Of a DNA stretch of 63,001 nt, positions 25,809-59,004 are shown in pieces. A program made the position numbers and the translations under genes. Every line of letters starts with the position of its first letter. The first letter of the stretch is position 1. Under the pieces are notes generated by a model. That model was given only the letters and a program-made list of their open reading frames with translations, did no database searches and had not been told where the DNA came from. The DNA comes from Candidatus Roizmanbacteria bacterium (GTDB lineage Bacteria > Patescibacteriota > Microgenomatia > UBA1406): positions 1 to 63,001 of the forward strand of contig JANLHL010000045.1 of the NCBI GenBank assembly GCA_024654535.1, in the 5' to 3' direction.

Positions 25809-25811
25809 GTA

Positions 25812-26822: not shown

Positions 26823-26826
26823 GAGC

Positions 26827-27537
26827 TTATTGTACCTTTGTTTTTGAAGTGAGGTTTAATAAAATTGCAGTATATGTATAGGTATAAACCATGCGGAAAA
26901 AATGTGATTTGCTGACACCATAGCTTCGCGCAGTGTAATATACGGGCACCGTTTTTATGTGGAAGCCCATTTGCTTTGCGTAAAACAATAGTCGTAGGCA
27001 GTATTCGCCATAACCATGATAAATCGATTTAAGGTCGAGTGAGTGCAGTTTTTTTGCGGAAACTGCATAATAGCCACTCGTATTGTCGATTATTGGGAAT
27101 CTAAATAGATTTTTCAGAACAAGGTTAAAAAAGTAACTTATCCAATATCGCGTTTTTTTTTGCATTCCGCCCCCAGTAACAAATCGAGATGCTACAACCA
27201 AATCTGCGCTTGAGAGAACATCTATTAACGTAGGAATAATGCGCACGTCGTGGTTAAAATCTCCATCCATCCCGACTACAACATCTCCACGTGCATGTTC
27301 TATACCCATTAGTATTGATTTTCCCAAATCAGGTTCCCCTTTTCGCACATAGCACACAACCCGGTCGTTTTGATGAAATACCTTTTTTACGATATAGCCT
27401 GTTTTGTCAGGGCTATCGTCGTCGACAACAATAACCTCCTGTATCGATACGCTTTTTATTTTAAGAATTTGTCGAATGAGCTTAACAATATTTTCAGATT
27501 CATTAAATGTTGGGATTATGATAGAAATCGTTTTCAT
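26827..27537 (-). CDS. glycosyltransferase family 2 (polyprenol-phosphate sugar transferase-like)
   Basis: ISIIIPTFNESENI, VVDDDSPD, MDGDFNHD. Confidence 0.85.
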   Translation of the reverse strand: MKTISIIIPTFNESENIVKLIRQILKIKSVSIQEVIVVDDDSPDKTGYIVKKVFHQNDRVVCYVRKGEPDLGKSILMGIEHARGDVVVGMDGDFNHDVRIIPTLIDVLSSADLVVASRFVTGGGMQKKTRYWISYFFNLVLKNLFRFPIIDNTSGYYAVSAKKLHSLDLKSIYHGYGEYCLRLLFYAKQMGFHIKTVPVYYTARSYGVSKSHFFRMVYTYTYTAILLNLTSKTKVQ

Positions 27538-28250
27538 TTTTTTTGGGCAAGTATGATTATGCTGGATCCAAATGGTAAATTAAAATAGGCCAGAATTTTG
27601 GACTCGATGCGAATACATGCGTAGAGTATGGCATTAATATATTTGTGAGGACTGGATACATAGTGTGTGGCCTTTTTGTTTCTCAACAAGATCCTTGAGA
27701 TTACAAACAAAGGGAATGTGCTGGCAAAAATATACGAAGAGCGAATTATGGTGAATCCAGCATCCTTCACTGTCCATTCAAGACCTTTTTTATTAAATCG
27801 AATACGTGCCTGCATTACTCTATCATGCTCTCCGAATAAAGATTGATGCGCACAATCGGTAATAAGCAACCAGCTGTTCTTTTTTAATACTCTTCTTGCC
27901 TCACTTAAAACCACTTTTTCGTTTATTTGTTTATGATAAAGGACGTCCAATATTGTTACGCAATCAAATATATTTGCGTGAAACGGTAAGGAGTTTGCAC
28001 TTCTATTTATAACCGTAACTTTATTTTTTTTTGCATAGAACCAAGCTTTTTTGTTTTGTTCTATTCCTGTGACAAACCCGAAGCGATCAAGAAATTTTGT
28101 TGTAAATCCAGTTCCACAACCTATATCCAATATGTTTGCGTTGTGAAGATCTGTGAGTTTTAACATAGTAGATAGGTAGGCTCGTTTTCCTCTAAACCAC
28201 CAATGCTTTTTCTCGTGATTATACATATCGGCGTACTGTCTGTCTTGCAT
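27534..28250 (-). CDS. class I SAM-dependent methyltransferase
   Basis: Motif I ILDIGCGTGF. Overlapping start/stop with neighbouring genes. Confidence 0.8.
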   Translation of the reverse strand: MQDRQYADMYNHEKKHWWFRGKRAYLSTMLKLTDLHNANILDIGCGTGFTTKFLDRFGFVTGIEQNKKAWFYAKKNKVTVINRSANSLPFHANIFDCVTILDVLYHKQINEKVVLSEARRVLKKNSWLLITDCAHQSLFGEHDRVMQARIRFNKKGLEWTVKDAGFTIIRSSYIFASTFPLFVISRILLRNKKATHYVSSPHKYINAILYACIRIESKILAYFNLPFGSSIIILAQKK

Positions 28251-28251
28251 A

Positions 28252-29358
28252 TTAGGTTGGTAGCGTTTCTCGAATCGCTTGTACTACAGAGCGAACATCT
28301 TGTTCACTCAGAGTAAGGCCTGATGGTAGATATAATCCTTCGCGGGCTAATCGAGTACTAACAGATAAGGGAGAGCCAACCACACACAAATTTTTTAAAG
28401 CCGGTTGCCTATGGAGGGGGAAAAAAAACGTTCGGGTTTCTACCCCTTTTTTATATAGCTTTTCCATGAAGGTTGATCGACTCATTTGAGCAGAACTTTG
28501 TAAATGAACCGAGTACATCCAGTACACGCTTTTAGCATATGATTTTTCTATTGGCAAACGTAAATGTGAAACGTCTTGTAGTAGAGAAGTATACAAACGT
28601 GCTGTTGCCCTCTTTTTTTTAATATACTCTTGAAATCTACTCATCTGTCCTATTCCTAGAGCAGCTTGTAAGCCTGATAGTCTATAGTTAAAACCAATGG
28701 CGCGGTGAAAAAAACGCTTGGTCGGGGAATGGGCTAAGTTTCTCAGCGAAATCATTTTTTTATAGAGGTTTTTATTATTGGTTACAATCATTCCCCCTTC
28801 TCCAGTTGTTATTATCTTATTTGCGTAAAAACTAAAAATTCCAAGAGTACCAAACGTACCTACTGCTCTATTTTTATAGAGTGCTCCATGTGCCTCAGCA
28901 CAGTCTTCTATAATGAAAAGTTTGTGCTTACGAGCAATTTTAGTTAAGAGAGACATATCAGCAGGATGCCCAAGCAGGTGTACTACCAGTATTGCTTTGG
29001 TTCGAGGAGTAATTGCTTTTTCTACCTGAGCAGGGTCAAGATTCCCTGTTTCTACGCCGACGTCGACGAGTACTGGAATGGCTCCGCAATAGATAGGTGC
29101 TAGCGCACAAGAGATGATAGTAAGATTGGGAACAATAACTTCATCGCCCACACCTATTCCAAGCGCCACACAAGACAGATGTAGTGCAGCGGTGCCATTG
29201 GAAACCGATACCCCGTAGCGAGCGCCAGTAGAAGCGGCAAATATTTTTTCAAACTCAGCTACATATTGACTACTTCCCGATATCCATCCACTCGTTAAAC
29301 ACTCTTTTACTTTTTGAAAGGATTCGGGCGCAATTGCAGGTTCACTTACTGGAATCAT
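28252..29358 (-). CDS. DegT/DnrJ/EryC1/StrS family sugar aminotransferase
   Basis: Start at internal Met (MIPVSEPAI). Typical layout, with the SFYANKIITTGEGG block carrying the PLP Lys. Confidence 0.85.
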   Translation of the reverse strand: MIPVSEPAIAPESFQKVKECLTSGWISGSSQYVAEFEKIFAASTGARYGVSVSNGTAALHLSCVALGIGVGDEVIVPNLTIISCALAPIYCGAIPVLVDVGVETGNLDPAQVEKAITPRTKAILVVHLLGHPADMSLLTKIARKHKLFIIEDCAEAHGALYKNRAVGTFGTLGIFSFYANKIITTGEGGMIVTNNKNLYKKMISLRNLAHSPTKRFFHRAIGFNYRLSGLQAALGIGQMSRFQEYIKKKRATARLYTSLLQDVSHLRLPIEKSYAKSVYWMYSVHLQSSAQMSRSTFMEKLYKKGVETRTFFFPLHRQPALKNLCVVGSPLSVSTRLAREGLYLPSGLTLSEQDVRSVVQAIRETLPT

Positions 29359-29770
29359 TTGAATTGAAAAACAACTTATTTGTCTGTGCGTACGGGCCAT
29401 GTTTAACCTCAATAATTTCACTATCTTCGATGGCCGTTAGCCCATGTCCAAGAGAGTGGAGTATGATAATGTCACCACCATGGATAGTTCTTTTATCAAT
29501 AACGGTTTTATCTTTGGTAAAAAAAGTAACACAAATAGTGCCGCGTATAATATATAAAACTTCCTCTGTAGTTTCTATATGAATGTTCCTTTTTGGATGT
29601 GTGTGTGGTTTCCACTCGTAACCAGCTTTTGCATGGTGTGTTCCCACCTGTAGCGACCTTTCGTGTTCGGTAAAAAAAATGGGACCGTACGGCCTAAGGT
29701 CGGGGGTAATTATTGTTGCGACTCGTTTTTTTTGATAGGTAATATATTCTTTTTTTTGATTTGAACCCAT
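29342..29770 (-). CDS. cupin domain protein
   Basis: HTHPKRN...EEVLYIIRG...GGDIIILHSLGHG, a two-motif cupin pattern. In an operon with the aminotransferase. Confidence 0.6.
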   Translation of the reverse strand: MGSNQKKEYITYQKKRVATIITPDLRPYGPIFFTEHERSLQVGTHHAKAGYEWKPHTHPKRNIHIETTEEVLYIIRGTICVTFFTKDKTVIDKRTIHGGDIIILHSLGHGLTAIEDSEIIEVKHGPYAQTNKLFFNSNDSSK

Positions 29771-29847
29771 TGGACCAAGATATTTTCAATGGTAGAAGTA
29801 TATACCAAAACAAAAAAATATGTCGTTTATATTTAAATCGGTGTACA

Positions 29848-31416
29848 ATGGAGATGTTAAATAATTATTTACTGTTAGGTTTATTGAATATTTACATCAA
29901 GACCGCCATAGTTGTTTTGTGTGCTTCTTTGATAGTTTTTTTACGCCAGCTCCCCGACTATTGGGCTGCTATACATACTCCAACGGGTTATGAATATTCA
30001 GGACAAGCTTCGTGGTTTGATCCTTGGGATGTGAATGTGTATGTAGGAGCAATTCGTTATGGGCAGAGCGGGCATATTTTACTTGTCAATCAATATAGAA
30101 CGGATAATACAAAAGAGGCGTTTCTATATCCGCTCTATACTCTTACCGGATATTTCGTTCGTACGATTAATCCCTATATTCTTTTTCATGCACTTGGGGC
30201 GGGTGTTGGTATGGGTTTTTGTTTGATTCTATATGTACTCGCATACTTGGTATTCAGAAAATTTTGGTACAGCCTATGTGCAATGATCCTCACGAGTTCA
30301 GGTGGTGGATTTGGTTGGATGTTTAAAGATGGGTTTAAAAGTGCGGACACTTTTGTGACGAGCTTTACCATGATGAGCGGTTTTCAGCGCGCCCACGAAG
30401 GGATCGGCACGATACTATATATATGCTCTCTAATGTTTTATTTTTTTGCTACCCAAACACCCTTTTCTTCACGGCGGTTTCAATATCTTGCTATTTCAAC
30501 AGCTTCATTAATAGCGTTAATACTCTTTTATCCCTACTACCTACTCATATATGCGCTTGTTGCGGGAGCATTTACATTCATTTATGTTAGGGAAAGAGAG
30601 AAAAAAAAGCCTTTATTCATATGGGTTAGTATCTCTCTTGGATTTTCTGCCATACTATCGTTGTTCTATTTGATACACCTGCGTATGACTAGTCTGGCGA
30701 GCGCCACAACAGAAAATTTACACAATCTCACCTCAGGCACACTCGTACTGGGATACGGACCATTAATACTCTTTTTTTTAATACAGATATATTTGAGAAA
30801 AAGAAATTATACAAGTGCATTACCACGGTTCTTATGGTTATGGGTAGGTATTTCTTTTTTTTCAGCGTATTTACCCTTTGGTTTTTCACGCTTTTATTTT
30901 AGAGGCCTTTATTTCCCGCTTGTACTATTGGCACTTGCGTATACGCTACAATTACGGTATGCAGCACAGAGAAAATTGCTCATACTTTTTTTGTGTATGT
31001 TTTTACCACTGACATCATTGTATATTTTTTCGAAACGAATGAACGAAGCGGGCAAAATTAATCAGTGGTTTTATTATTCACGTGAAATAGGCGATGCCTT
31101 CAGGTATATTCGAAGCGACTCAAAAAATGGCGTACTAAGCGGGTATATACTCGGTAACTACATTCCTCCAAAGACAAACAAATCTGTATATTTTGGACAT
31201 AACATTCAATCTACCAATGGGAAAATTAGACAAGCCCAGTTGAGAAATTTTTATTCGGGGAAGCTTAGCACGAGTGAAGCAAAAATATTCTTAGGCAAAA
31301 ATAACATATCGCTTATTGTATATGGTCCTGAAGAACGCACGTTCGGGGGGCACGTATACCCATTTATGAGAAAAACCTATTCAAACTCTAGAGTTCAAAT
31401 ATATACAGTTTTATAG
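29848..31416 (+). CDS. polytopic membrane protein, GT-C-type glycosyltransferase-like
   Basis: More than 10 predicted TM helices plus a soluble C-terminal domain. Start at the ATG at 29848 (MEMLNNYLLL). Divergent from the glycan operon. Confidence 0.5.
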   Translation: MEMLNNYLLLGLLNIYIKTAIVVLCASLIVFLRQLPDYWAAIHTPTGYEYSGQASWFDPWDVNVYVGAIRYGQSGHILLVNQYRTDNTKEAFLYPLYTLTGYFVRTINPYILFHALGAGVGMGFCLILYVLAYLVFRKFWYSLCAMILTSSGGGFGWMFKDGFKSADTFVTSFTMMSGFQRAHEGIGTILYICSLMFYFFATQTPFSSRRFQYLAISTASLIALILFYPYYLLIYALVAGAFTFIYVREREKKKPLFIWVSISLGFSAILSLFYLIHLRMTSLASATTENLHNLTSGTLVLGYGPLILFFLIQIYLRKRNYTSALPRFLWLWVGISFFSAYLPFGFSRFYFRGLYFPLVLLALAYTLQLRYAAQRKLLILFLCMFLPLTSLYIFSKRMNEAGKINQWFYYSREIGDAFRYIRSDSKNGVLSGYILGNYIPPKTNKSVYFGHNIQSTNGKIRQAQLRNFYSGKLSTSEAKIFLGKNNISLIVYGPEERTFGGHVYPFMRKTYSNSRVQIYTVL

Positions 31417-31424
31417 TAAAGAAC

Positions 31425-32642
31425 CTATTCGTATCGGAGTGCATCTATTGGCTGTAAGTCTGCTGCTTTTTTGGCCGGATATATGCCAAATATGAGTCCA
31501 ACTATTGTAGAGACTCCTACTGCAAGAGCGAGTGAAGATGGAGAAACGATGAAGGGTATATTAGCCACTTTGGTTATGCCATACGTGGCACCAACGCCTA
31601 TAGCTATCCCAATAGCACCGCCAGAAACGGTTAGCACGACAGATTCTATGAGAAACTGTAATAAAATATCTCTACGTTTTGCTCCAAGCGCCTTTAATAG
31701 ACCAACCTCTTTGGTTCTCTCGGTTACGGTGACAAGCATAATATTCATAATACCAATACCACCAACAACGAGTGAAATTGCAGCGATTCCTGCGAGTAGG
31801 CTTGTCAATAGCCCGGTGACAGTTCCTAACGTTGAGAGCGCATCCTTGGAGCTCCTTAACGAAAAATCTGGGTCTGCACCGTCAGCAATTTTATGGCGAG
31901 TAATGAGCAGTGACCGTATGTCTTCCATTGTTTGATCAATAATATTAGTATTCTTTGTTTCAACCAGTATTGTTTGTACGAAGTCTTGTCCGAGCAAAAC
32001 CTTCATTGCGGTTGTATAGGGAACATAAATATAATCATCTGGATTTACAAAACCAGAAGCTCCCTTTTGATCGGCAACACCGATAACCCTGAACGACCTA
32101 TTATCTATTTTTACTATCTGTCCTACCACCTCTGAGCCTTCTCCGAACAGATCTATTGCAACCTGATAGCCCAAAACTGCAACACGAGATAATCCAGAAA
32201 CGTTATCTGCAGTTACAAATGTTCCTTGTGTAGTGCTGATTGTTTGTATTGCAGCATATGATTCCGCAACGCCTTGTATTGATGAGTTTACTTTCTGGCC
32301 GTTTGCAACGACTTGAAAAGAACGAGTAACGACTGGTGAAACCGATTGTATATTGAGGCTCGGATTTGTATTTAGTATTGCTTCTGCATCTGCAACGGTA
32401 AGTGTTTTTACGCCCGCAGTACCAGAAGGGCCTTGGGAAAGTGAACCTGGGAATATTATGACAAGGTTAGTGCCAAATGAGGATATTTGGTCGGTGATTG
32501 CCTTTGTTGCACCCTGTCCAAGCGAAATAATGAGTATTACAGCAGCAATACCGATAATGATGCCCAACATAGTGAGAAGTGTTCGCAAAATATTAGATCG
32601 CAGCGCTCCGAGTGCTGTAATAAATAGTTCACCGATTTGCAT
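31425..32642 (-). CDS. ABC transporter permease, MacB/FtsX family
   Basis: N-terminal TM, a large extracytoplasmic domain, and a C-terminal FtsX 3-TM block (GIMNIMLVTVTERTKEVGLLKALGA). Confidence 0.9.
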   Translation of the reverse strand: MQIGELFITALGALRSNILRTLLTMLGIIIGIAAVILIISLGQGATKAITDQISSFGTNLVIIFPGSLSQGPSGTAGVKTLTVADAEAILNTNPSLNIQSVSPVVTRSFQVVANGQKVNSSIQGVAESYAAIQTISTTQGTFVTADNVSGLSRVAVLGYQVAIDLFGEGSEVVGQIVKIDNRSFRVIGVADQKGASGFVNPDDYIYVPYTTAMKVLLGQDFVQTILVETKNTNIIDQTMEDIRSLLITRHKIADGADPDFSLRSSKDALSTLGTVTGLLTSLLAGIAAISLVVGGIGIMNIMLVTVTERTKEVGLLKALGAKRRDILLQFLIESVVLTVSGGAIGIAIGVGATYGITKVANIPFIVSPSSLALAVGVSTIVGLIFGIYPAKKAADLQPIDALRYE

Positions 32643-33348
32643 GTGTTTTGTCTGAATTTATAGTGTCGCTTTTAATTGTGCCATCGTGTAATCGGATTAC
32701 CCTTTTTGCGTACGCAGCTATGTCATCCTCGTGCGTTATGAGTACGATAGTATTTCCCTGCCTATTTAGTTCTTGAAAGAAATCCATGATCGTATGCGCT
32801 GTTTTACTATCGAGGTTTCCCGTTGGTTCATCAGCAAGTATTATACTTGGATTCATAACAAGTGCTCGAGCTATAGCAACTCTCTGAATTTGTCCTCCTG
32901 AAATATGGTTCGATAAATTCTCTGCTTTTTCTTCTAACCCAACGAGTTTTAGCGATCGCAACGCTTTGTCTTTACGTTGATCTGGTGGTATATCTGCATA
33001 CATCATTGGTCTCTCAACATTCTTTAACACACTAGTACGAGGGAGTAAATTGAAAGATTGGAAAATGAAACCAATTTCTCTGTTTCTGATTTCAGCAAGC
33101 GCATCTTCATCATATTCTGTTATATCCTTCCCTTTTAGAAAGTATTGACCATCTGTTGCGTTATCAAGTGCCCCCATAATGTGCATCGTTGTTGACTTTC
33201 CAGAACCAGATGGGCCCATTATGGCTACAAATTCATTCTTGTAAATATCAAAAGAAATATCTTTTAATGCTTGATACGTCTGTGTGCCGGTTATGTAATC
33301 CTTACTAATATTTTGGAATGAGATCACCGGTACCTGTTTCGTCGTCAT
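32629..33348 (-). CDS. ABC transporter ATP-binding protein (MacB/LolD-like)
   Basis: Walker A GPSGSGKST, signature LSGGQIQRVAIARAL, Walker B ILADEPTGNLD. Confidence 0.93.
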   Translation of the reverse strand: MTTKQVPVISFQNISKDYITGTQTYQALKDISFDIYKNEFVAIMGPSGSGKSTTMHIMGALDNATDGQYFLKGKDITEYDEDALAEIRNREIGFIFQSFNLLPRTSVLKNVERPMMYADIPPDQRKDKALRSLKLVGLEEKAENLSNHISGGQIQRVAIARALVMNPSIILADEPTGNLDSKTAHTIMDFFQELNRQGNTIVLITHEDDIAAYAKRVIRLHDGTIKSDTINSDKTHANR

Positions 33349-33353
33349 AGATA

Positions 33354-34673
33354 TTATTGTCCACCCGGAACAGTGTTTGTAGATCGGGTAACTTGTCCGT
33401 TCTGGAGTGCGGTTATAACTTCTGTACCTTCTTTTATTCCGCTCATTATTTGAGTCTTTTCTATACCAACGAGCCCAATGGTAACCGGTACGAAAATTGG
33501 TTGTTTTGTTTTTACGTCGAGTACTTGTACGGCCTTACCACCTTTGTATGGTTTTACCGCACTGTTCGGTACGAGTAGTATATTTTCTTTTTTAGCAACC
33601 TCTATGTCAACATTTGCCGTCATAAGAGGACGTATTGCAGGGTCTGCTTTTTTGAGTCGTAAGTAAACTGTGTAAAGTATAACACCTGCCTCATCGTGTC
33701 CATATGTATCGACACGCTCCACTATTGCTGGGAACGTTTTTTGTGGAACTGCATCTATGGTTATTTCTGCAGTATTTGCTGGTTTTACTTTTGCAATATC
33801 GACCTCGTTTAATTCAACCGACACTATATATGCACTATCCCCTTGTGCCACAACGATGACTGGCGAAAGAGTAGATGCATTTGTAGAAAGAAGAGCTTTA
33901 ACAGTATCACCTGTCTGAACGGCGAGATTATAAATTGTTCCCGGGGCTGTTGCTTTCACAATAGAACTTTGTGTTGCATTATAGGCAAGGTAGGTTGACT
34001 GTGCACTCGCTTGAGCCGCGGCAATTGCAGTATCTGCCTCGAGATACTTTTTCTCAGTTGCGGTAAAAGACTCTTGAGATATAGTCCTAGCAGAATCTTT
34101 ACTATCTATTTCTTCCTGAGTATATGGCCTACCAGTCTCAGGATTATTTGCGCCAACACTTCTTTTATAGTCAAGGTATGACCGAGCGCTTTGCGCATCC
34201 AACACTGCTTTTCGTGCTGTTTCGAGCTGTGATTGTAGTGTGAGTTTACTTTGTTGTGCTGTTTTTAAAGCAGAGAGCGCACTTGTATAGTTTGCATATA
34301 GGTTTGCTTTTTCCTGTTCTGTTGCAGTGCTTTGTACTTCAAATAATGGGTCGTTTGTGTTGACTATATCACCGTTTTGTACATATAGTTTTGTAATAAT
34401 CCCGCTCGTCGGAGAGTATATATTTACTCTGCCGCCAGATGACACGTTTCCTGTTTCTGAAACAAGCTCCACAATGTTTCCCAGCTCGACCTTTGTAGTT
34501 ATATACAGCGGTTGTTTCTTACCTTGAGAAACAGATTTTATGATGAATAAAAGCACAAGTATGCCTATAACTAGGGCAACTTTTTTCCATAATCCCAATT
34601 TTTTAAACCATCCCCACGAACCAGTAGTTTTTTTTACAATAAACGACCAGCTATTATGTTTTATTTTTTTCAT
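33354..34673 (-). CDS. efflux periplasmic adaptor (HlyD/MacA family)
   Basis: N-terminal TM, lipoyl-like halves (GIITKLYVQNGDIV / GTIYNLAVQTGDTV), and a coiled-coil hairpin. Confidence 0.8.
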   Translation of the reverse strand: MKKIKHNSWSFIVKKTTGSWGWFKKLGLWKKVALVIGILVLLFIIKSVSQGKKQPLYITTKVELGNIVELVSETGNVSSGGRVNIYSPTSGIITKLYVQNGDIVNTNDPLFEVQSTATEQEKANLYANYTSALSALKTAQQSKLTLQSQLETARKAVLDAQSARSYLDYKRSVGANNPETGRPYTQEEIDSKDSARTISQESFTATEKKYLEADTAIAAAQASAQSTYLAYNATQSSIVKATAPGTIYNLAVQTGDTVKALLSTNASTLSPVIVVAQGDSAYIVSVELNEVDIAKVKPANTAEITIDAVPQKTFPAIVERVDTYGHDEAGVILYTVYLRLKKADPAIRPLMTANVDIEVAKKENILLVPNSAVKPYKGGKAVQVLDVKTKQPIFVPVTIGLVGIEKTQIMSGIKEGTEVITALQNGQVTRSTNTVPGGQ

Positions 34674-35106
34674 GATTGTGTTGTTCTAATGCGTTATATG
34701 TATTATTTAGAATGGTAAATAAGTTTTTTTTGTCGAGAGGTGAAATTTTTTCCATAAGGTATGACATTCTCTTCATTTTAGTGCTCGTTGCTTTTTTTAG
34801 TTTTTTTTCACCCGCTTGTGTTAAGTGTATCAAAACCAAGCGTCTATCGTGAGTATCGTGAGTGCGCTCAACAAATCCACGTTCAACCAGTTTTTCTACT
34901 AAGCTTGTTGCCGAGGGCAGCGATATAACAAGATCATCTGCAATTTTCCCCATCGTGTTTTTACCCTGAGAGATTGCAGAAAGAGCCTGAAGTTTGCCCA
35001 TGCTTAATTCTTCCTCGTTTAGAGCCGCTGTTTGTTTTCTTAAGAGCCGCATAACCCTGTGTATGAGTAAAAAAATTTGTTCTTCAGAGCTTTCTTTTTG
35101 AAACAT
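34654..35106 (-). CDS. MarR family transcriptional regulator
   Basis: wHTH block ...MGKIADDLVISLPSATSLVEKLVERGFVERTHDTHDRRLVLIHLT. Confidence 0.85.
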   Translation of the reverse strand: MFQKESSEEQIFLLIHRVMRLLRKQTAALNEEELSMGKLQALSAISQGKNTMGKIADDLVISLPSATSLVEKLVERGFVERTHDTHDRRLVLIHLTQAGEKKLKKATSTKMKRMSYLMEKISPLDKKNLFTILNNTYNALEQHNHEKNKT

Positions 35107-35171
35107 AGTTCTACTTATTAATAGTTAGATAAGCTAAGTATATATACTATCGATAGGTTTTGCAAGCGTTA

Positions 35172-35684
35172 CTACAGTTTTCGACTGTCGTACCCCCAAT
35201 GAAGGAGGGCTTGGCGCTGCTTACGCCTGCACAGTTGATCTCTACGAATACAATTTTTCTCTATTTGTGCCACGTGGCGGCGCATAGCTCGCCACCGCCT
35301 TATTTGTCGAGTATCTTCGTGTGGTATTCGCCTACCCATAAAGTAGCGACAATACCACAAAAACCATCCTTGCGGGTCCTCGTGGTATATCCACCCCTTT
35401 TCTTGCCAGACTACCAGCGGTTGCGAGGCATTCACTCGATAGAAATTTTTACCGGGATCCTTTATATGACTATTCAAATTATTTTTGCTGAACCACTCTT
35501 TGGGAAATTCAGCGCTATTGACCGTCTCATATTTCCCGCCAAATATGCCCAAATCTATCATTAGGTGTGGGGTAAGCTCTGGAGTAAATAGAGGATCAAA
35601 ATGTTCGCCAACCGGCTCGGTGAGTTGGTAGCGGTAGTTTTTTTGCAAAAAATTATTGACAACGACGATTTTTTGAATGGTCAT
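35172..35684 (-). CDS. conserved hypothetical protein
   Basis: 170 aa with a Trp/Arg-rich block GWFLWYCRYFMGRRIPHEDTRQIRRW. ATGA overlap with the upstream gene. Family not recognised. Confidence 0.5.
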   Translation of the reverse strand: MTIQKIVVVNNFLQKNYRYQLTEPVGEHFDPLFTPELTPHLMIDLGIFGGKYETVNSAEFPKEWFSKNNLNSHIKDPGKNFYRVNASQPLVVWQEKGWIYHEDPQGWFLWYCRYFMGRRIPHEDTRQIRRWRAMRRHVAQIEKNCIRRDQLCRRKQRQALLHWGYDSRKL

Positions 35685-36739
35685 TTTGCTAGATATTTTT
35701 TGTAAAATGCAACCGTGTTTTGCATAGCAGGGGTAAACGATGAATCGGCAATGTTGTGACCACCACTCGTGTATTCGTAGAACTCGTGTACCACTTTTGT
35801 TTTATCTAAAAGCGCCATAAGATCTCTACTATAACCGATGTTCACTACCGTATCGTCTATTGCGTGATTGATTTGGATCGCACCCTTTAGGTCCGAAAGA
35901 AAGCTCGTTGGTGCCATATCGTGCCAAAACGCACTATCAGAACCAGGACTTCCATAGCGATCAGATACGTGTTGGCGAGTATTTTGTCGAGGTGAAACGC
36001 TTGGTCTGCGCTGATAACTACTATCGCTTATGCCGTATTTTTGCATGTCAGTGTACGAATAGACTGCTCCTGCCCAGATAGAAACGGCAGGAATTGTCGG
36101 TTTTACAGCAAATGCGCGCATAACAACATTACCTCCCATACTGTGTCCCCACAAACCAATTTTTGATGGATTGACAAAATCTGTCTTCTGCAGCGCGGCA
36201 ATTGCGTTCAGCGTATCTATGACATAGTCGGCAGAATAGTATGCGCCCGTTGCAACACCCTCAGAAGTTCCATGACCACGCAAATCTATCTTAAAAACGA
36301 CAAAACCATTTTTGGCAAGATAATCGACGTAGTCTTCATATTTTACTGTCGTTTCGTATTGGCTCGGTGGTATGTACCCGTGCACAAACACAATAGCGCT
36401 CCATCCGTTCTTTGGCATTTCTCCTGTGGGGATGGTGAGAAGTCCTTGGATTGTCAGCTTATCTGAATCATAGCTCGTTATGTACGAGGTATAGTTTGTA
36501 TACTGCTCATAGACTTCACGATTTCCAAGCGTACTCTCGTATGTTCTGCTTCGTAAATAAGGAATAGTGAGCTCATAAAGTGGGTATGGTGTTGGAATAC
36601 TGTCTCTTGTAGTTAAAGAGTGGAACGGATTAGTAAGTGTTGAGGTGGGAAAAAAAGTGCGTGAAAATATGTACAATCCGGCCATACTCACCACTGCGAG
36701 CAAAATGAAAGCGGTTATTTTTTTTGCCATGCGTACCAT
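35681..36739 (-). CDS. alpha/beta hydrolase (S9 peptidase/esterase-like), membrane anchored
   Basis: N-terminal TM, VFVHGY, nucleophile elbow GLWGHSMGG, and C-terminal GGHN. Confidence 0.75.
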   Translation of the reverse strand: MVRMAKKITAFILLAVVSMAGLYIFSRTFFPTSTLTNPFHSLTTRDSIPTPYPLYELTIPYLRSRTYESTLGNREVYEQYTNYTSYITSYDSDKLTIQGLLTIPTGEMPKNGWSAIVFVHGYIPPSQYETTVKYEDYVDYLAKNGFVVFKIDLRGHGTSEGVATGAYYSADYVIDTLNAIAALQKTDFVNPSKIGLWGHSMGGNVVMRAFAVKPTIPAVSIWAGAVYSYTDMQKYGISDSSYQRRPSVSPRQNTRQHVSDRYGSPGSDSAFWHDMAPTSFLSDLKGAIQINHAIDDTVVNIGYSRDLMALLDKTKVVHEFYEYTSGGHNIADSSFTPAMQNTVAFYKKYLAK

Positions 36740-36874
36740 TGTAACGCATTTATTCTCACGAATTATACGTAAAATTATTGCTCAAAGGGCATACGCGTGT
36801 GGTAATATATATGTTGTTCTTTGAAAGGAAGAAAACAATTTCCCCGGTAGCTCAATGGTAGAGCGTCCGACTGT

Positions 36875-37434
36875 ATAGTATCAGTGGTGTAAAATATACT
36901 GTAGCAATGAAAGATAAACGTACTTATAGAGATCGTGCGGCATATATAATCAAAGCCGTTACTAAGCGTAGGAAGAAGCTTAAAAAAATGGCGGTAGATT
37001 ATCTCGGAGGTCAATGTATCTTTTGCGGTTATAATAAACTTGATGATGCACTCGAATTTCATCATATAGACGCGACAAAGAAAGATTTTGGCTTAGCGAA
37101 AAGAGGCCTCACGAGATCGTGGGAGAAAATAAAACAAGAGCTTAATAAATGTGTTCTTGTTTGTGCGAATTGCCACAGAGAAATACACACTGGAATAGTG
37201 CAGCTTTCAGCAGAAATGTTGATTGAAAAACAGGGTGAATTCAGGGAAACCTAAACCTGCCTTAGGTAGGTATGGCAATCCTGAGCCAAGCTTAGTGAAA
37301 GACACAACAGTAACTAGGAAGGTGCAGAGACTAGAGAGTGAGGAGTCTTACCAATAACCTCTCAATAAGCGCCCTGTCCCTCTAATAAAGGGAAAAAGAT
37401 AGTCCATTCTTTACAGAAATGTAAAGATAAAATG
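36875..37434 (+). ncRNA. group I self-splicing intron (560 nt) in the tRNA-Asn anticodon, between nucleotides 35 and 36
   Basis: The 5' exon ends in U, pairable with G36901 (P1: CUGU/GUAG plus AGUAU/AUACU).
Core elements: P GAATTCAGGGAAACC 37237-51, Q AATCCTGAGCC 37277-87, R GGTGCAGAGACTAG 37321-34, S AAGATAGTCC 37396-405.
Pairings: P3 CAGGGTG/CGCCCTG, P7 GACTA/TAGTC, P8 CCCT/AGGG, P9 TCTTTAC/GTAAAGA.
The intron ends in G37434. Confidence 0.8.
36907..37254 (+). CDS. intron-encoded HNH endonuclease
   Basis: CIFCGY...ALEFHHID...CVLVCANCHREIH is an HNH/Zn-finger signature. Starts 3 nt after P1 and its last ~24 nt overlap P3-P4. Confidence 0.85.
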   Translation: MKDKRTYRDRAAYIIKAVTKRRKKLKKMAVDYLGGQCIFCGYNKLDDALEFHHIDATKKDFGLAKRGLTRSWEKIKQELNKCVLVCANCHREIHTGIVQLSAEMLIEKQGEFRET

Positions 37435-39017
37435 TAATCGGCAGGTTCGAGGTTCGAATCCTCGCCGGGGAGCCAGTTGGCACTTAATATACCAAGTTTA
37501 GCCTCATTAAGAACTTGGAGTGCAGGAGTGTATTCGACCTCCACTATTTTCTTATTTTGTACCCATATCTTTTGGAAGAAAAAGTGTAGATAAGCACGCT
37601 TGTGGTCGATGTCCGAATCCTCATAAGTTTGAACGATATTTCGAGTAAGTTTAAGTACTTCGTTAATGATGGAAGTATCAATAGTGTTGGTCTTATCCTG
37701 TTCTAAAAGTTCTTTCTGAATAACTAAGGCTTCTGCATCTAGTTGAGTATTGAATTTTTGGAGTTGCTCAGCAGATAGTTTGTTATCAAAGTAATCTTTT
37801 TCAATCTTTATTCTTTTTTGATCTACTGCATCTCTTTTGTTAAATAATGCCTTTTTAGCGTGTTGAATACGATCAATACTTTCATCGTAAACACGAGTAA
37901 TGTTGGTTTCAACAGCCTTGATAAATTCATCTGTAAAGGCAAGTTTATCGACTTCTTGTCTTACTTGGTCCTCTAAGTCAGTAAGCAGTACATATCTTGA
38001 AGGGCAACCACCACGCTTACCTGTTTGAGAGCAGTGATACATCCCAATCTTGCCATTACCAGTTTTATACTTCTCATGATAATGCCATTCCGCAACATAA
38101 CGTCTTCCGCAGTCTTTACAAAAGACGATACCCCTAAGAAGAAAGTTGTGCTTTCTTTTGCGTAAGCCATAATCACCTTTTTCTGAGAGTATTTTTTGGA
38201 CTAATTCAAAAGTAGGTTTGTCGACTAGCGGCTCATGTTTTCCCTTACCCACTTGTCCTCCGTGTCTCATCTCTCCCCAATAGAATGAGTTCTTGAGCAT
38301 ATTTCCGACAATGGAATATTGAATCGGTTTACCTTTTCTTCCAGTAACCCCATTCTTGTGGAGATACTGGCGAATATCATAAATCGCATAATCACGAGTT
38401 GCATACAGTTTAAATGCTTGACGGACAAAAGGTGCTGTATCAGGATCAGGAATAACAATCTTTTTGTCGTAAGAACCCTCAGGATTTTTATTGACAACAT
38501 TTAGATAACCTAACGGAGCCCAAGACGGATAATATCCTGCCTTAAATTTTTCTGCCGCTGTTTGTTTGACTTTATAGCTAGTCATGCGAGGAAAGAAGGC
38601 GTTCATCACCGCCATCATTTCATTCATTGTTCTGCTTACTGGATCACCATTAATCACTCCCGAAAGTGGAACGATTTTAACCCCACATTTTTCTAGTTCG
38701 CTAATAATAAAACAATATTCAAAAGTATCACGAGATAGTCGGGATATGTCTTGAACAACGAGATATTTGATGTCCTTTTTGGAACACCGACTTAATAGGG
38801 CTTGGAAGCTTGGTCTGTTTAAAGTTGTACCTGAAATCCCATTATCAACGTAGCAATCTTCAGCTAAGTACCCACCCAATTCTTGAATCTTTTCTAGCCC
38901 CTTAATCTGTTGGGTTTCAATACTGAGATTATCTACCTGATCCAGGGTACTTACTCTTGCGTAAAGAATGCACTTTGGTTTATCTCCATGTTCTGTAATA
39001 TCTTGTTTTAATCTCAT
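37362..39017 (-). CDS. large serine recombinase (integrase) 1; the last ~35 codons are antisense of the tRNA-Asn 3' exon and intron
   Basis: Catalytic ILYARVSTLDQ, recombinase domain, Zn ribbon (CKDCGRRY...CSQTGKRGGCPSRY), and a coiled-coil. The ORF reads through the junction at 37475 (..ILSANWL|PGEDSNLEPAD..). Confidence 0.9.
   Translation of the reverse strand: MRLKQDITEHGDKPKCILYARVSTLDQVDNLSIETQQIKGLEKIQELGGYLAEDCYVDNGISGTTLNRPSFQALLSRCSKKDIKYLVVQDISRLSRDTFEYCFIISELEKCGVKIVPLSGVINGDPVSRTMNEMMAVMNAFFPRMTSYKVKQTAAEKFKAGYYPSWAPLGYLNVVNKNPEGSYDKKIVIPDPDTAPFVRQAFKLYATRDYAIYDIRQYLHKNGVTGRKGKPIQYSIVGNMLKNSFYWGEMRHGGQVGKGKHEPLVDKPTFELVQKILSEKGDYGLRKRKHNFLLRGIVFCKDCGRRYVAEWHYHEKYKTGNGKIGMYHCSQTGKRGGCPSRYVLLTDLEDQVRQEVDKLAFTDEFIKAVETNITRVYDESIDRIQHAKKALFNKRDAVDQKRIKIEKDYFDNKLSAEQLQKFNTQLDAEALVIQKELLEQDKTNTIDTSIINEVLKLTRNIVQTYEDSDIDHKRAYLHFFFQKIWVQNKKIVEVEYTPALQVLNEAKLGILSANWLPGEDSNLEPADYILSLHFCKEWTIFFPLLEGQGAY
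37467..37491. repeat. attL-type junction: 25-bp direct repeat copy 1 (GGGGAGCCAGTTGGCACTTAATATA)
   Basis: Identical 25-mer at 58980-59004. The first 9 nt are the tRNA-Asn 3' end and the rest is the antisense of the recombinase 3' coding end. Confidence 0.8.
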
Positions 39018-43585: not shown

Positions 43586-46500
43586 ATGAGCGAATTTTCA
43601 GAACAGACAATCATTGATGAAAAGGGTCTTAAAATACTTGCTTTAGCATTTGATGAGCTATTTATAGACATTCAGTCTTTTGGAGCAAAAGACAAGACAG
43701 CGGATGTAGATGGAAGAGTCAGGCTTAGGGATGGAAAAAGCAAAAACTTAAACAAAGTTCTTGAGTTTCAATTAAAAAGCACCAAGAAGGTAAAGGGTAA
43801 TAAACACAGGTTTGATCGTAAGGATATTGACTATCAACTTTCATGCAATATCCCCACTCTAATGTTTGTTGTAGATGTGACAAGTAAGAAAACGTATTGG
43901 TATTATTTTCCAAATAATGTTAATAAACTTGATATAGGGAAAAGTTACGAAACTAAAACGCTTGATCTCAAAGGGTGTGAAGTCGATGGTAACTCTAAAG
44001 AACTTAAAGAATTATGGGAAAAGATAGCAAGTGTTGAACCTTCAGAAATTTCTTCGAAAACTGCAACATCAGAACTTGAGTTAGACGTAAGAGCTGACAA
44101 AACAGAAACATCCTCACAAGTTCGAGCAGTACTAAGCTATGAGGCAACCTCCGAATATCAATCAGAACTAGATAATGCCCGAGATTTAATAAACAACAAC
44201 AAACCCCTCACTGCCTTAAGTATCCTCGAAGATTTAAAAAAGCGTGTATGGAATAAAACTTCTGATAATCTAGTTAAATTTCGAATATTGACCAACATTG
44301 GAGCATCCAAACTTGCCTTAGATCAGGAGACAGAAGCATGTAAGTTGTTTCTTGAGGCACTCCAATACAATCCCGATGATGAAAAGGCATTAGCAAATGT
44401 TTCTTTAGCTTATTTATTATCAGGAGATAGCGCTCAGGCAATTACTTATGCACTCAAAACATTAGATAAGAATCCTTCCAACCCCCAAGCGTTATCTGTT
44501 TTTTTGCAAGCAGCTGATAAAAAGAAACGTGATAGTTATCTAGATAAATTATCGAGCACTCTCAAAAACTCACCTGAGGTGTATTTTTCACTTGGATTCG
44601 TTGAACAGAAAAATGATAACTACGAGCAAGCAATTCCTTACCTACGTAAAGCGTTGGAGCTTGATGATGGCAAATCATTAGAGATACCAAGTACATTAGC
44701 GGGAGCATTGATAGATAAAAATGTCCCAGTCCTAAAGAAACAGGAGCTTGAAGGTTTAACAAAGAAAGATAATGCGGAGGTTGAGGAAGCGATAGGACTT
44801 CTAGATAAGGTTTGGGGTAAGGTTGAAAATACTGAATTAGCAAAAACAAAAGTTAGTTGGTTGGTAAATCGAAGTTTTGCGAAGAGAGTTTTAGGTAAGT
44901 ATGACGAAGCCTATGAAGATGCAAAAAAAGCATGCGAACTTGATCCTGACAATTTTAATGGGATACGAAATTTTGCAATCCTTTCTTTTGAGATGAATAA
45001 GTATGACGAAGCAATCAAGCTTCTTGAGCCATTTAAAAACTCTAAAGAATTTCCTCAAGCTACTTATTTGATGGGATTAGTAGTAAGAGAACGTAAAGAT
45101 TTTGATAAGGCTATTGCACTAATTCTGAGTCAATTGGAACAACCGAATATAACAGACGATACTAAAGAAGATGGATTAGCACTTCTTATTGAAACGTATC
45201 TGATGGCGGGAAAACCTGATGATGCAGAAAAATATATAAACGATAATCTGAAAAAGAATGAAAAGAACTTAATGTTATTAGTTTTCAAGTCAAAACTTTA
45301 TCAGGATAGAGGGCAACAATCAGAGGCGATAGAACAAATTAAAAAGGCATATAGCTACTTAACTGAGACATCTTCTTACCATGACAAGTTTATGGTCGGA
45401 AGCCAACTATATAAACTTCAACAGTTTAAAGAAACTCAAGCGATTTACGAGGAGATAGTCGATAAATCTGTTTACTCTCAATTGTTGTATCGGCTTTTGT
45501 ACACCTATTACGAAACCAATAGTTACGCAAAAGCACTGGCTCTCAGTCGGTCAATAATTCAAAAACAAGGACCCATTGACGATGTATTAAAGATACAAGC
45601 TGCCATTTTGGAAGAACAAGGTGATCTCGATGGAGTTATAGCAACTTATGATATGGCGATTGAAAATAATCCTAATGACATCTCATCAAAGGTTCAAAAA
45701 GGGTTTGTGTTACTTAGGCAAAATAAATTTAAAGAAGTAGATAAGTATTTAGATGAGACAATTTTCGATTTAGAAACACTTTCGGAAACAATGAGATTCC
45801 GATTGGGATACCTCTATGCTCTTCGTGGAAAAATAGATGAATTCCTTACAACCATTTACGAAACTAGACGGAAATTTTATGACGATGAAAAAGCGCATGT
45901 GGAATACATTCAGCTGTTCTTCATGAGAACAAAAGACACTGAGTCCATTCTTGCCCCAAAAGAAGTTAAGGAAGGGACTGGGGTTGTTTATAAACTTCCC
46001 AATGGTCAGTTGGAACGCTTTGTTATTGATGATAGAGAAGATGCGTCCAAAGCACTTAAAGAAATTAGACCAAGCGAGGAGTTGGCAAAGAAATTAATGG
46101 GTAAAAAGGTTGGAGACAAAGTTGAAATTAAGCCAAGAGTGATTGTAGAAATAACGGAAATCAAGAGTAAATATGTCCATGCTTTACACGAAAGTATGGC
46201 GTTACACCAATCATTGTTTAGCGATACGCCTGGTCTGCAAAGTATTCAATTGGGTGAACCTAAAAAGAAGGGTGAATTACCTGAAGGATTTGACGTTATC
46301 GAGAAACAAATTACCGATCAATATGACCATGCACAAAAGGTGGAAGCTCTTTATAAGAATAAGAAGATTACCATCGGAGCTTTTGCGAATTTAATTGGTA
46401 GAAACATAATTGAAGTTTGGGGTGGGATGGTAGCCGAGGAAAGGTTGGGTATAAATTACGCAAGAGGTGATCTGCAAGAAAGGATCACTGCTGTTGCTGA

Positions 46501-47434
46501 ACTCAAAGATAATATTCAACTTGTTATTGATCCAATAGCTCTACTCACTATTCACTCGTTGGACATTAAAGACCTAATGATAAAGGCTTACGGAAAATTA
46601 GGAATAGCTCAATCGACTTTAGATTTAATCAATCAACAAATATCACAATTGGAACCTATTAAAGAAAAGGGCTATCTAACTTTAGGCAAACAAGGAGAGC
46701 AATTTACCAAGTGGGAAGTCAAACCTGAGACTATAAAAAAGAACATCAAATATTTAAAAGATTTGAGCCAATGGATTAAAGACAACTGTGAAATACTTCC
46801 AATTACAGAAATGGAAGACATTACTAAAGAACAGAAAGAAGATTTAGAAAAACTCTTTGGTATCCCTTCCATAGATACAGTTTTAATTGCGAGAACTAAA
46901 GAGAAGCTTTTATTTTCTGATGATCAACCGTTAAGAGAGGTTAGTAAAAACGAGTATCACGTTAATGGGATTTGGACTCAAGCTCTTTTAATGAATGCAT
47001 TGGGTAAGGGCTTTATAACTCAGGAGCAATATGACGACTATGTTCTTAAACTTGTGGGTTTAAATTATTACTACACAAGCGTAAGTGGCAAAAACTTGTT
47101 TTACGCTCTAGGGAAAGCTAACTGGAAGCTCGAAGAACCATTTAAGAGTGCTTTAAGAATGTTAGAGCCATCTTTTACTGATACCGATTCATCAATAAAT
47201 GTAGCTGTCGACTTTTTATATGATGTGTTTACGCAAAAAGTGATACTTGGAGATGTAAATCCAATTTTATTTAGTTTGCTTGATAGTTTAACCAAAGATA
47301 GGCTTGTAGGTGGAGTTTTAGGAAAGTTGATACAGGATTTGAAAAAAAGATTTTATTTAATACCTCTAGATTTAAAACTTATTCTTGATGCAGTAGAAAT
47401 TTGGAACAAAGCAAAGATAGTCAAAACCCAGTAA
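43586..47434 (+). CDS. 1282-aa multidomain protein: DUF4365 (restriction-endonuclease-fold) + long TPR array + GreA/GreB-C-terminal-like domain + PIN-like domain
   Basis: aa 1-150: ADVDGRVRL...EFQLKST (DUF4365 pattern).
aa ~190-790: repeated A..Y..AL...P TPR units.
aa ~800-850: RPSEELAKKLMGKKVGDKVEIK (GreA C-terminal-type motif).
aa ~970-1130: IQLVIDPIALLT and LLFSDDQPL (PIN-type acidic motifs). Confidence 0.8.
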   Translation: MSEFSEQTIIDEKGLKILALAFDELFIDIQSFGAKDKTADVDGRVRLRDGKSKNLNKVLEFQLKSTKKVKGNKHRFDRKDIDYQLSCNIPTLMFVVDVTSKKTYWYYFPNNVNKLDIGKSYETKTLDLKGCEVDGNSKELKELWEKIASVEPSEISSKTATSELELDVRADKTETSSQVRAVLSYEATSEYQSELDNARDLINNNKPLTALSILEDLKKRVWNKTSDNLVKFRILTNIGASKLALDQETEACKLFLEALQYNPDDEKALANVSLAYLLSGDSAQAITYALKTLDKNPSNPQALSVFLQAADKKKRDSYLDKLSSTLKNSPEVYFSLGFVEQKNDNYEQAIPYLRKALELDDGKSLEIPSTLAGALIDKNVPVLKKQELEGLTKKDNAEVEEAIGLLDKVWGKVENTELAKTKVSWLVNRSFAKRVLGKYDEAYEDAKKACELDPDNFNGIRNFAILSFEMNKYDEAIKLLEPFKNSKEFPQATYLMGLVVRERKDFDKAIALILSQLEQPNITDDTKEDGLALLIETYLMAGKPDDAEKYINDNLKKNEKNLMLLVFKSKLYQDRGQQSEAIEQIKKAYSYLTETSSYHDKFMVGSQLYKLQQFKETQAIYEEIVDKSVYSQLLYRLLYTYYETNSYAKALALSRSIIQKQGPIDDVLKIQAAILEEQGDLDGVIATYDMAIENNPNDISSKVQKGFVLLRQNKFKEVDKYLDETIFDLETLSETMRFRLGYLYALRGKIDEFLTTIYETRRKFYDDEKAHVEYIQLFFMRTKDTESILAPKEVKEGTGVVYKLPNGQLERFVIDDREDASKALKEIRPSEELAKKLMGKKVGDKVEIKPRVIVEITEIKSKYVHALHESMALHQSLFSDTPGLQSIQLGEPKKKGELPEGFDVIEKQITDQYDHAQKVEALYKNKKITIGAFANLIGRNIIEVWGGMVAEERLGINYARGDLQERITAVAELKDNIQLVIDPIALLTIHSLDIKDLMIKAYGKLGIAQSTLDLINQQISQLEPIKEKGYLTLGKQGEQFTKWEVKPETIKKNIKYLKDLSQWIKDNCEILPITEMEDITKEQKEDLEKLFGIPSIDTVLIARTKEKLLFSDDQPLREVSKNEYHVNGIWTQALLMNALGKGFITQEQYDDYVLKLVGLNYYYTSVSGKNLFYALGKANWKLEEPFKSALRMLEPSFTDTDSSINVAVDFLYDVFTQKVILGDVNPILFSLLDSLTKDRLVGGVLGKLIQDLKKRFYLIPLDLKLILDAVEIWNKAKIVKTQ

Positions 47435-58979: not shown

Positions 58980-59004
58980 GGGGAGCCAGTTGGCACTTAA
59001 TATA
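58980..59004. repeat. 25-bp direct repeat copy 2 (GGGGAGCCAGTTGGCACTTAATATA)
   Basis: Identical to 37467-37491 and preceded by TACCAAG, which also precedes the junction at 62891. Confidence 0.8.

Follow-up and report, generated by a model that had tools for sequence, protein, structure and literature searches.

How is tRNA-Asn(GUU) made from a gene whose anticodon is interrupted by 560 nt? The question arises in a window of 63,001 nt (the whole stretch of DNA analysed; contig JANLHL010000045.1, Candidatus Roizmanbacteria bacterium), in which the tRNA-Asn(GUU) gene at positions 36841-37475 carries a 560-nt group I intron between nucleotides 35 and 36 of the anticodon. Sequence comparison makes it likely that this is a functional self-splicing intron of the Asn.4Ug class that restores tRNA-Asn(GUU), and that the open reading frame (ORF) in the loop of its P1 helix encodes an HNH homing endonuclease targeting intron-less tRNA-Asn genes.

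With introns allowed, ARAGORN reported a single gene in the window, tRNA-Asn(gtt) at 36841-37475 with a 560-nt intron after position 34; in default mode, without introns, it reported zero tRNAs across the 63 kb. Neither ARAGORN nor Rfam found any tRNA in the window besides the split tRNA-Asn, which is presumably the only tRNA-Asn of this cell. Joined, 36841-36874 and 37435-37475 form a 75-nt cloverleaf, again called tRNA-Asn(gtt) by ARAGORN, with the anticodon loop CTGTTAA, T1-A72, G73 and an encoded CCA. U36874 occupies position -1 at the 5' splice site. The gene is built as follows:

36841-36874 (+): tRNA-Asn exon 1, 34 nt, tRNA positions 1-35, ending in CUGU (ARAGORN in intron mode and the spliced sequence)
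36875-37434 (+): group I intron, 560 nt, ending in the terminal guanosine (omega-G) G37434 (Rfam RF00028 and the tRNA exons)
37435-37475 (+): tRNA-Asn exon 2, 41 nt, tRNA positions 36-76, UAAUCGG...GGGGAGCCA, ending in GCCA with G73 and the encoded CCA (ARAGORN)

The Rfam model RF00028 (Intron_gpI) matched 37145-37426 (+) over its full length (1-253) at 89.5 bits (E = 1.5e-21; gathering score 50), far better than chance would allow, and Intron_gpI is the only Rfam family above threshold in the window. The tRNA exons and the U-1/omega-G rule jointly define where the intron begins and ends. G37434 stands just before the 3' exon, and all 77 homologous tRNA-Asn introns described below end in G.

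For the core we aligned 33 non-redundant tRNA-Asn introns, each with six exon nucleotides, using MAFFT. The structure was read from the window intron and projected onto this alignment, and pairs were counted explicitly. Over 62 pairs in 12 helices, standard pairs fill 95.7% of the cells. Shuffling lowers this to 79.5%, with none of 500 shuffles attaining the real figure, and displacing the partners by 1-3 columns lowers it to 32-43%. Compensatory changes occur in 37 of the 62 pairs, with a covariation score of 0.479 versus 0.177. The P3-P9 core with its P3/P7 pseudoknot is thus supported by covariation, and consists of these elements:

37207-37222 (+): P2 hairpin UCAGCA-GAAA-UGUUGA with a GNRA loop; 6 of 6 pairs compensatory, 98.5% of cells paired
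37231-37237 with 37370-37376 (+): P3, from the Rfam alignment; 99.6% paired
37241-37246 with 37279-37284 (+): P4, from the Rfam alignment; 98% paired
37250-37275 (+): P5/P5a with a CCUAA...UAUGG tetraloop-receptor-like motif, from the Rfam alignment; P5 100% paired
37285-37287 with 37321-37323 (+): P6, from pair counting in the 33-intron alignment
37291-37296 with 37313-37318 (+): P6a; 6 of 6 pairs covary, 99.5% of cells paired
37327-37333 (+): P7 5' strand G.GACUA (37327 and 37329-37333), pairing with 37400-37405; 6 of 6 pairs invariant in 33 of 33 introns
37334-37363 (+): P7.1 hairpin GAGAG-UGAGGAGUCUUACCAAUAAC-CUCUC with an invariant GAGGAG...ACCAAUAA loop; 5 of 5 pairs covary
37377-37380 with 37390-37393 (+): P8; 3 of 4 pairs covary
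within 37370-37405 (+): J8/7, between P8 and the P7 3' strand, from the Rfam alignment and pair counting
37409-37426 (+): P9 hairpin CUUUACA-GAAA-UGUAAAG; 6 of 7 pairs covary

In the alignment P5a reaches just 72% pairing, since its length is variable and MAFFT cannot align it. P7, the predicted guanosine-binding helix, matches the consensus GACUA/UAGUC, and its invariance is as expected of a catalytic helix. P7.1, located between P7 and the P3 3' strand, is the mark of this intron subfamily.

Several features recall the IC3 introns of Azoarcus tRNA-Ile(CAU) and cyanobacterial tRNA-Leu(UAA), which likewise sit in tRNA anticodon loops with their exons held by the anticodon stem. The P3-P4-P6-P7 strings are near-identical (GAAUUC.GGGAAACCUAA..., GGCAAUCCUGAGCCAAGC, GAAGGUGCAGAGACUAG and AGAUAGUCC), both P2 and P9 carry GAAA tetraloops, and P5 has the receptor-like CCUAA/UAUGG. 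This comparison used the Azoarcus sequence and the preprint seed alignment introduced below. The window intron differs from the IC3 introns in its host tRNA, its loop position, its ORF and the conserved, covarying P7.1 between P7 and P3'. Canonical IC3 introns have a compact core whose L2/L9 GNRA loops dock into P8/P5 receptors, and they have neither P7.1 nor P7.2. Since the core is IC3-like but P7.1 is present, the subgroup was left unassigned.

A first-pass annotation, read from the letters of the window, had already proposed the two-exon tRNA-Asn(GUU) of 34 and 41 nt, the split between nucleotides 35 and 36 at the CUGU/UAA site, a 560-nt insert that follows U and ends in G, and a group I core with P3-P9 pairings. 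ARAGORN in intron mode, the Rfam match and the pairings held across 33 aligned introns bear all of this out. Its placement of P1 fared less well. It had noted that the U before the intron can form a wobble pair with G36901; this pairing is possible in the sequence, but as the real P1 partner G36901 probably gives way to a strand about 300 nt further downstream. The strands concerned are:

36870-36876 (+): P1 5' strand, exon ACUGU plus intron AU, pairing with 37198-37204; U.G pair in 33 of 33 introns
37198-37204 (+): internal guide sequence, the P1 3' strand GUGCAGC; GCAGC (37200-37204) invariant in 33 of 33 introns and always directly 5' of P2
36900-36904 (+): local UGUAG, the alternative partner of the 5' splice site and probably a mimic; core duplex -1.9 kcal/mol

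P1 comprises C36871-G37203, U36872-A37202, G36873-C37201, U36874.G37200, A36875-U37199 and U36876.G37198. In the alignment, the GCAGC 5' of P2 is complementary to the exon end GCUGU, whose CTGT is invariant (33/33), and L060, L036 and other short relatives without the ORF offer no other P1 partner. The core duplex at the splice site reaches -6.6 kcal/mol with this distal strand and -1.9 kcal/mol with the local strand in the G36901 register (C36871-G36904, U36872-A36903, G36873.U36902, U36874.G36901, A36875-U36900). The P1 pairs, including the U.G wobble, never vary because the exon bases are fixed by the tRNA, and the P1 assignment therefore rests on homology and position rather than on covariation. 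The most likely P1 partner of U36874 is G37200 in the invariant GCAGC, not G36901.

With P1 drawn in this way, its loop holds a complete protein-coding gene:

36907-37254 (+): intact HNH endonuclease ORF, 115 aa, in the P1 loop (Pfam, PHROG and homologues)

The intron is 560 nt long because this ORF lies inside it. The first-pass annotation had given the right length, which it regarded as merely unusual, and had missed this cause. The protein matches phage HNH families in PHROG, among them PHROG 2255 'HNH endonuclease' (phrog_2255) at 3e-27, much more strongly than it matches Pfam HNH PF01844 (23.7 bits, cut-off 21.4); an NCBIfam search gave no match. In this same place, eight other tRNA-Asn introns of 544-578 nt encode intact homologues that share 55-64% identity with the window protein (L009, L016, L024, L032, L035, L044, L061 and L067; hosts labelled Heliobacteriaceae, Delta- and Gammaproteobacteria, Elusimicrobia and Patescibacteria). 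The metal-binding and catalytic residues CxxC...HH...N...CH..H are kept in 9 of 9 homologues. Pairwise alignments of introns with and without the ORF (L044 with L069, L032 with L080) place it in the P1 loop. These ORF-less twins share their flanks with ORF-bearing introns (L069 with L044; L080 with L032 and L061), decayed remnants of the ORF are found in L010 and L028, and more distant relatives occur in three tRNA-Gln introns. Judged from these sequences, the pattern of gain, decay and loss is typical of homing-endonuclease genes.

Towards its 3' end the ORF shares its sequence with the guide, P2, P3, P4 and the beginning of P5, so that two C-terminal protein motifs are dual-coded: (L/V)Q(L/P) coincides with the UGCAGC guide and EKxGEFRE with the P3/P4 string.

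A -10-like hexamer (TATACT, TATAAT or TATACA) stands 6-7 nt before the HNH ATG in the window (36895-36909) and in L032, L044, L061 and L067. In several ORF-bearing introns this hexamer is the 5' arm of a hairpin with the AUG in the 3' arm; its role could be that of a promoter inside the intron, giving a leaderless mRNA, or of a hairpin that controls translation. L016 and L024 have Shine-Dalgarno-like sequences before the HNH start in its place.

The selective constraint on intron and ORF can be read from a close relative, the metagenome locus L101 (contig Ga0210057_1000432), which is collinear with window positions 25680-37473 over 11.8 kb at 83% nucleotide identity and stops exactly at the tRNA 3' end. 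The exons are 100% identical, exon 2 as far as L101 reaches. Its intron is also 560 nt long and differs by 36 substitutions and 0 indels, none of them in 36875-36906 or in the overlap of ORF and core. Several substitutions preserve pairing: P5a has two compensatory double changes, P6a has one switch from U-A to C-G, and two changes in P9 retain pairing through G.U. The HNH ORF shows 10 synonymous and 6 non-synonymous, mostly conservative, codon changes, and the ratio of non-synonymous to synonymous divergence (dN/dS) in the part outside the core overlap is ~0.14. The ORF is under purifying selection. Its dS of ~0.2, compared with 0.49-1.67 in six flanking genes, is compatible with a more recent exchange of the intron.

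Along the collinear segment, dS is lowest beside the tRNA (0.2 in the HNH ORF, 0.49 and 0.59 in the two adjacent genes) and rises to 0.97-1.67 further out, and two more distant genes (0.57-0.65) break this gradient. The dip may be a recombination tract around the homing site, or noise. L101 is the only one of 80 metagenome loci with homologues of the hydrolase gene that keeps the tRNA beside it, and none of these 80 loci showed an empty-site (intron-less) allele.

How exceptional is an intron at this site? Williams KP 2020 (bioRxiv 10.1101/2020.01.27.920355) scanned ~80,000 genomes and raised the number of tRNA/position settings of such introns from 4 to 21. The seed alignment in its supplement contains 'Pam37.Asn.4Ug', a tRNA-Asn intron after the fourth loop nucleotide (CUGU/UAA), and the host tRNA and position were therefore already described, computationally and in a preprint. 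The preprint gives no analysis of intron ORFs, remarking that introns above about 400 bp 'may contain' genes, and a later tmRNA paper from the same group cites its tFind software and does not revisit tRNA introns. The window intron shares with Pam37 the CUGU/a...g/UAA arrangement after the fourth anticodon-loop nucleotide, U-1, omega-G and P7.1 with GAGGAG...ACCAAUAA, and its core is ~79% identical to Pam37 over 211 aligned positions. By its sequence it is a member of an already catalogued and widespread class. The Pam37 seed, which is 93-97% identical to L007, L008, L012 and L020 (Floridaenema, Phormidium), differs in being 276 nt long without an ORF and in the proximal P1 drawn for it. To this class the window copy contributes an HNH gene that is intact and dual-coded with core elements, a revision of P1, and constraint visible in a close relative.

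We scanned GTDB species-representative genomes with a single narrow motif spanning P7-P7.1, AGAGACTA-N(4-8)-GAGGAG-N(2-4)-WACCAATAA, and obtained 99 stretches. Intron-aware ARAGORN followed by a check for U-1 and omega-G identified 77 of them as tRNA-Asn(GUU) genes split CTGT/...G/TAA (73 called directly, 4 mis-split as 'Thr'). Hosts carry cyanobacterial labels (Microcoleus, Tychonema, Phormidium, Floridaenema) as well as the labels Blastocatellia, Nitrospira, Delta- and Gammaproteobacteria, Elusimicrobia, Patescibacteria, Heliobacteriaceae, Rhodothermales and Anaerolineae. The first-pass annotation knew bacterial tRNA group I introns from four tRNAs only, tRNA-Asn not among them; the 21 settings and the 77 species genomes overturn both points. 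A 2014 review (PMC3984707), which cites tRNA-Leu and tRNA-fMet intron work and states intron-bearing phage tRNA genes to be unknown, repeats the common belief in four tRNAs and is corrected along with it. Default tRNA finders miss such introns, and genomes can therefore seem to lack tRNA-Asn.

The locus also borders an integrated island. The window is a segment of bacterial chromosome (dnaA, secD, SpoIID-domain, DUF4012 and DUF3048 proteins, MacB/FtsX, HlyD and several hydrolases). Its DUF4012, DUF3048 and SpoIID content might point to a bacterium of the candidate phyla radiation, an origin that we considered but do not claim. The features around the tRNA are:

36800-36808 (+): TGGTAATAT, possibly the extended -10 element of a pre-tRNA promoter, ~32 nt before the tRNA (from reading the sequence)
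37362-39017 (-): large serine recombinase ORF directly 3' of the tRNA, reading through the 25-bp repeat
37467-37491 (no strand assigned): 25-bp direct repeat, the last 9 tRNA nt plus 16 nt, with an exact copy at 58980-59004 (repeat search)
43586-47434: TPR-GreAB-C-PIN protein, inside the island
51327-52907: second serine recombinase, inside the island

The 25-bp repeats are probably the attachment sites attL and attR of a ~21.5-kb island, which also holds an ABC1 kinase, a trypsin-like protease and a Panacea-domain antitoxin. As this repeat-bounded island lies at the tRNA 3' end, the tRNA-Asn gene would also be the attachment site for one or more islands. The adjacent recombinase has its C-terminus encoded on the strand opposite exon 2 and the intron 3' end, and G+C content falls downstream of the tRNA, between the repeats. 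Degenerate copies of the attachment site and recombinase end at 59352-59513 and 62761-62902, with island remnants reaching about 62902, suggest tandem insertions. Upstream, the block 36797-36824 around TGGTAATAT is unchanged in L101, where nearby intergenic bases vary. We assign this element as the pre-tRNA promoter with low confidence; a consensus scan for promoters and terminators over 36650-37650 found nothing above shuffled expectation and did not call it.

Four other explanations have to be weighed against a working intron with a mobile ORF. The splice site could be as assigned but P1 formed locally, with U36874.G36901, which would put the HNH ORF between P1 and P2, outside the P1 loop. 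The sequence does allow the local helix, in which 36871-36875 pair with 36900-36904 and, as an extension, 36878-36881 with 36894-36897. In another register a longer local duplex attains -7.3 kcal/mol, and a local helix would be the first to form during transcription. Moreover, the 32 nt of 36875-36906 are the same in the window and L101 though the neighbouring ORF differs at 6% of positions, and Williams' seed alignment draws Pam37 in this manner. Set against this are the weak energy of the U-1/G36901 register, the invariant GCAGC beside P2, which is the sole candidate in short ORF-less relatives, and the other ORF-bearing introns, which do not share a conserved local mimic: the single one seen, in L044, sets U-1 against A. 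We regard a local P1 as quite unlikely and the strand at G36901 as probably a mimic. Less plausible by far is a dead copy: the split gene would be a tRNA pseudogene, or its intron unable to splice, and a working tRNA-Asn would lie elsewhere in the genome. The 63-kb view, the U27.C43 mismatch in the anticodon stem and the P1 mismatch at exon base -5 would fit, but the exons are the same in the window and in L101 although 17% of the flanking bases differ, the intron stems change in compensatory fashion, all 77 homologous split genes (77/77) still yield ARAGORN-valid tRNA-Asn, and the window holds no other tRNA.

The other two explanations concern the ORF and the owner of the gene. The intron might splice while its ORF no longer encodes a mobility nuclease, being instead a maturase-like helper or a near-neutral passenger inherited only vertically in this lineage. 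Such an ORF would stay intact since its 3' third is guide sequence and P2-P5, and its last 54 nt, which overlap core elements, do show zero changes relative to L101; the same locus and the same 560-nt intron in an 83%-identical relative fit vertical descent, and the large majority of the introns lack the ORF (69 of the 77 do not exceed 361 nt). Against it, the 291-nt non-overlapping part has the low dN/dS of ~0.14 with 11 synonymous changes, the HNH residues are preserved throughout the homologues, dS is 2.5 to 8 times below that of flanking genes, and the ORF is patchily distributed with decayed remnants across distant hosts. A loss of mobility function thus appears unlikely, though of the four it is the one we take most seriously. 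That tRNA and intron belong to the adjacent island or a prophage rather than to the host chromosome is barely credible. A gene for a large serine recombinase adjoins the 3' end of the tRNA and runs into it, G+C drops downstream, and phage contigs with a tRNA-Asn bearing this intron exist (L188). The direct repeat, however, begins only at 37467, within the last 9 tRNA nt, and collinearity with L101 takes in the tRNA, the spacer upstream of it and 11 kb of housekeeping-type genes, the L101 contig stopping exactly at the tRNA end. The tRNA-Asn is chromosomal because this synteny runs up to the tRNA.

A number of points weigh against a functional intron with a homing ORF. On the RNA side, four of the six P1 pairs are invariant and hence give no covariation support, and the local alternative at G36901 exists; the exon base at -5 is an A opposite C37204, making P1 one pair shorter than in most relatives; a P10 pairing is not evident in the intron; and U27.C43 at the top of the anticodon stem, a mismatch that the first-pass annotation does not mention, is the sole blemish of the spliced cloverleaf. 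The view of the genome is limited to 63 kb and a second tRNA-Asn elsewhere is possible, and the Asn.4Ug class is known from computation alone, the preprint being purely computational. On the protein side, the Pfam HNH score is barely above its cut-off, and a PDB sequence search with the ORF returned marginal matches only (E at least 0.2) and no close solved structure. The low dS of the ORF is based on 11 synonymous differences and could reflect constraint at the RNA level. Finally, taxonomy labels of metagenome-assembled genomes may be unreliable, which weakens the claim of spread across phyla.

If the intron works as its structure suggests, the gene would be transcribed as a ~635-nt precursor in which the core (P3-P9 and the family-specific P7.1 hairpin) folds and P1 forms between CUGU at the end of exon 1 and GCAGC (37200-37204), the 5' splice site being defined by U36874.G37200. 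Free guanosine would attack after U36874; omega-G37434 would then take the P7 site, and exon ligation would yield mature tRNA-Asn. The anticodon stem would keep both exons together and presumably aligns them, as in other tRNA introns. The predicted nuclease from the P1 loop would most likely cut intron-less tRNA-Asn genes near the universally conserved CTGTTAA, with repair copying the intron in (homing).

I-Ssp6803I, a homing endonuclease of the PD-(D/E)XK family, offers a comparison. It is encoded by the Synechocystis tRNA-fMet intron (Bonocora and Shub 2001, cited in PMC3984707), another bacterial tRNA group I intron with its own endonuclease directed against the intron-less anticodon region. 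The window differs in its host tRNA and in having an HNH protein, and what has been shown for I-Ssp6803I is predicted here. The phage enzymes I-HmuI (SPO1), I-BasI (Bastille) and I-TwoI (Twort) are, like the window ORF, small HNH nucleases within group I introns; their introns lie in protein-coding genes and the nucleases are larger, with extra DNA-binding modules, whereas the window ORF lies in a tRNA gene and encodes 115 aa only. We know of no HNH-family homing endonuclease specific for a tRNA gene described before.

A more speculative reading, which we think less likely than not, is that the ORF encodes an active, tRNA-gene-specific HNH-family homing endonuclease whose coding sequence doubles as the ribozyme guide and P2-P5, and that the intron spreads between phyla. 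If so, deletion of the ORF would tend to destroy splicing of possibly the cell's only tRNA-Asn. Since the target CTGTTAA is universal, such an intron would be able to pass between phyla, perhaps carried on phage tRNA-Asn genes like the one of contig L188. The overlap of ORF and ribozyme core is a neat instance of dual coding. With its intact HNH gene and close relative, the window intron is a clean, conserved case and a convenient candidate for tests of splicing and homing.

The same intron subfamily occurs in another tRNA. Ten further stretches among the 99 of the motif scan, all from Bacteroidota genomes (L021, L029, L045, L052, L055, L059, L062, L088, L089 and L090) have tRNA-Gln(CUG) split CUC/...G/UGAA, with C in place of U at -1, which would give a C-G pair at the splice site instead of the U.G wobble. 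In L021, L045 and L055 the intron holds a larger related HNH ORF with an N-terminal zinc-ribbon-like extension.

Relatives of the intron are also found in viruses, where a search with the P7.1 motif returned 12 loci. At 154-456 of L188 (IMG/VR contig 3300037067_019204, 161 kb), a tRNA-Asn(GUU) carries the same CTGT/...G/TAA intron of ~231 nt, and such phage-borne copies could carry these introns between hosts. A viral tRNA cluster in L192 (about 8600-9040) includes a tRNA-Leu(UAA) split CUU/AAAA. In L183, L185, L187 and L189 (IMG/VR) the same ribozyme subfamily (P7.1 GAGGAG...ACCAATAA) lies outside tRNA genes, apparently in protein-coding genes, and at least one of these viral introns, in L185, contains a LAGLIDADG-like ORF (AYFAGLIDGEGS).

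At the DNA level (blastn), the window HNH ORF resembles HNH genes of the Bacillus phages Bastille, Janet and Goe5 and of jumbo phages. A megablast of 30-44 kb of the window gave no match to phage records, and we rejected the idea that the window is a known phage. Look-ups by exact protein sequence had no record of four window proteins, namely the HNH ORF, the hydrolase, DnaA and the aminotransferase. The Klebsiella jumbo phage matches were likewise rejected as tRNA-Asn introns: the annotated tRNA-Asn of these phages is intron-less, and the matches represent an HNH gene and a separate intron in an unannotated tRNA(CAU). In Klebsiella phage KP13-7 (L001, OP617745.1) this split tRNA lies at 2948-3258 between tRNA-Ser and tRNA-Asn. 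Its exons 1 and 2, at 2948-2987 (ending in CUCAU) and 3219-3258, enclose a group I intron of 231 nt, which Rfam matches at 2962-3210 with 104 bits; the spliced anticodon is CAU, with U at -1 and G at omega. ARAGORN did not call the spliced tRNA(CAU), perhaps because of its 12-nt D loop. At the edge of a further viral contig with the intron motif (L191, 9688-9745), a RAGATH-18 RNA matched with 50.2 bits against a cut-off of 44.9.

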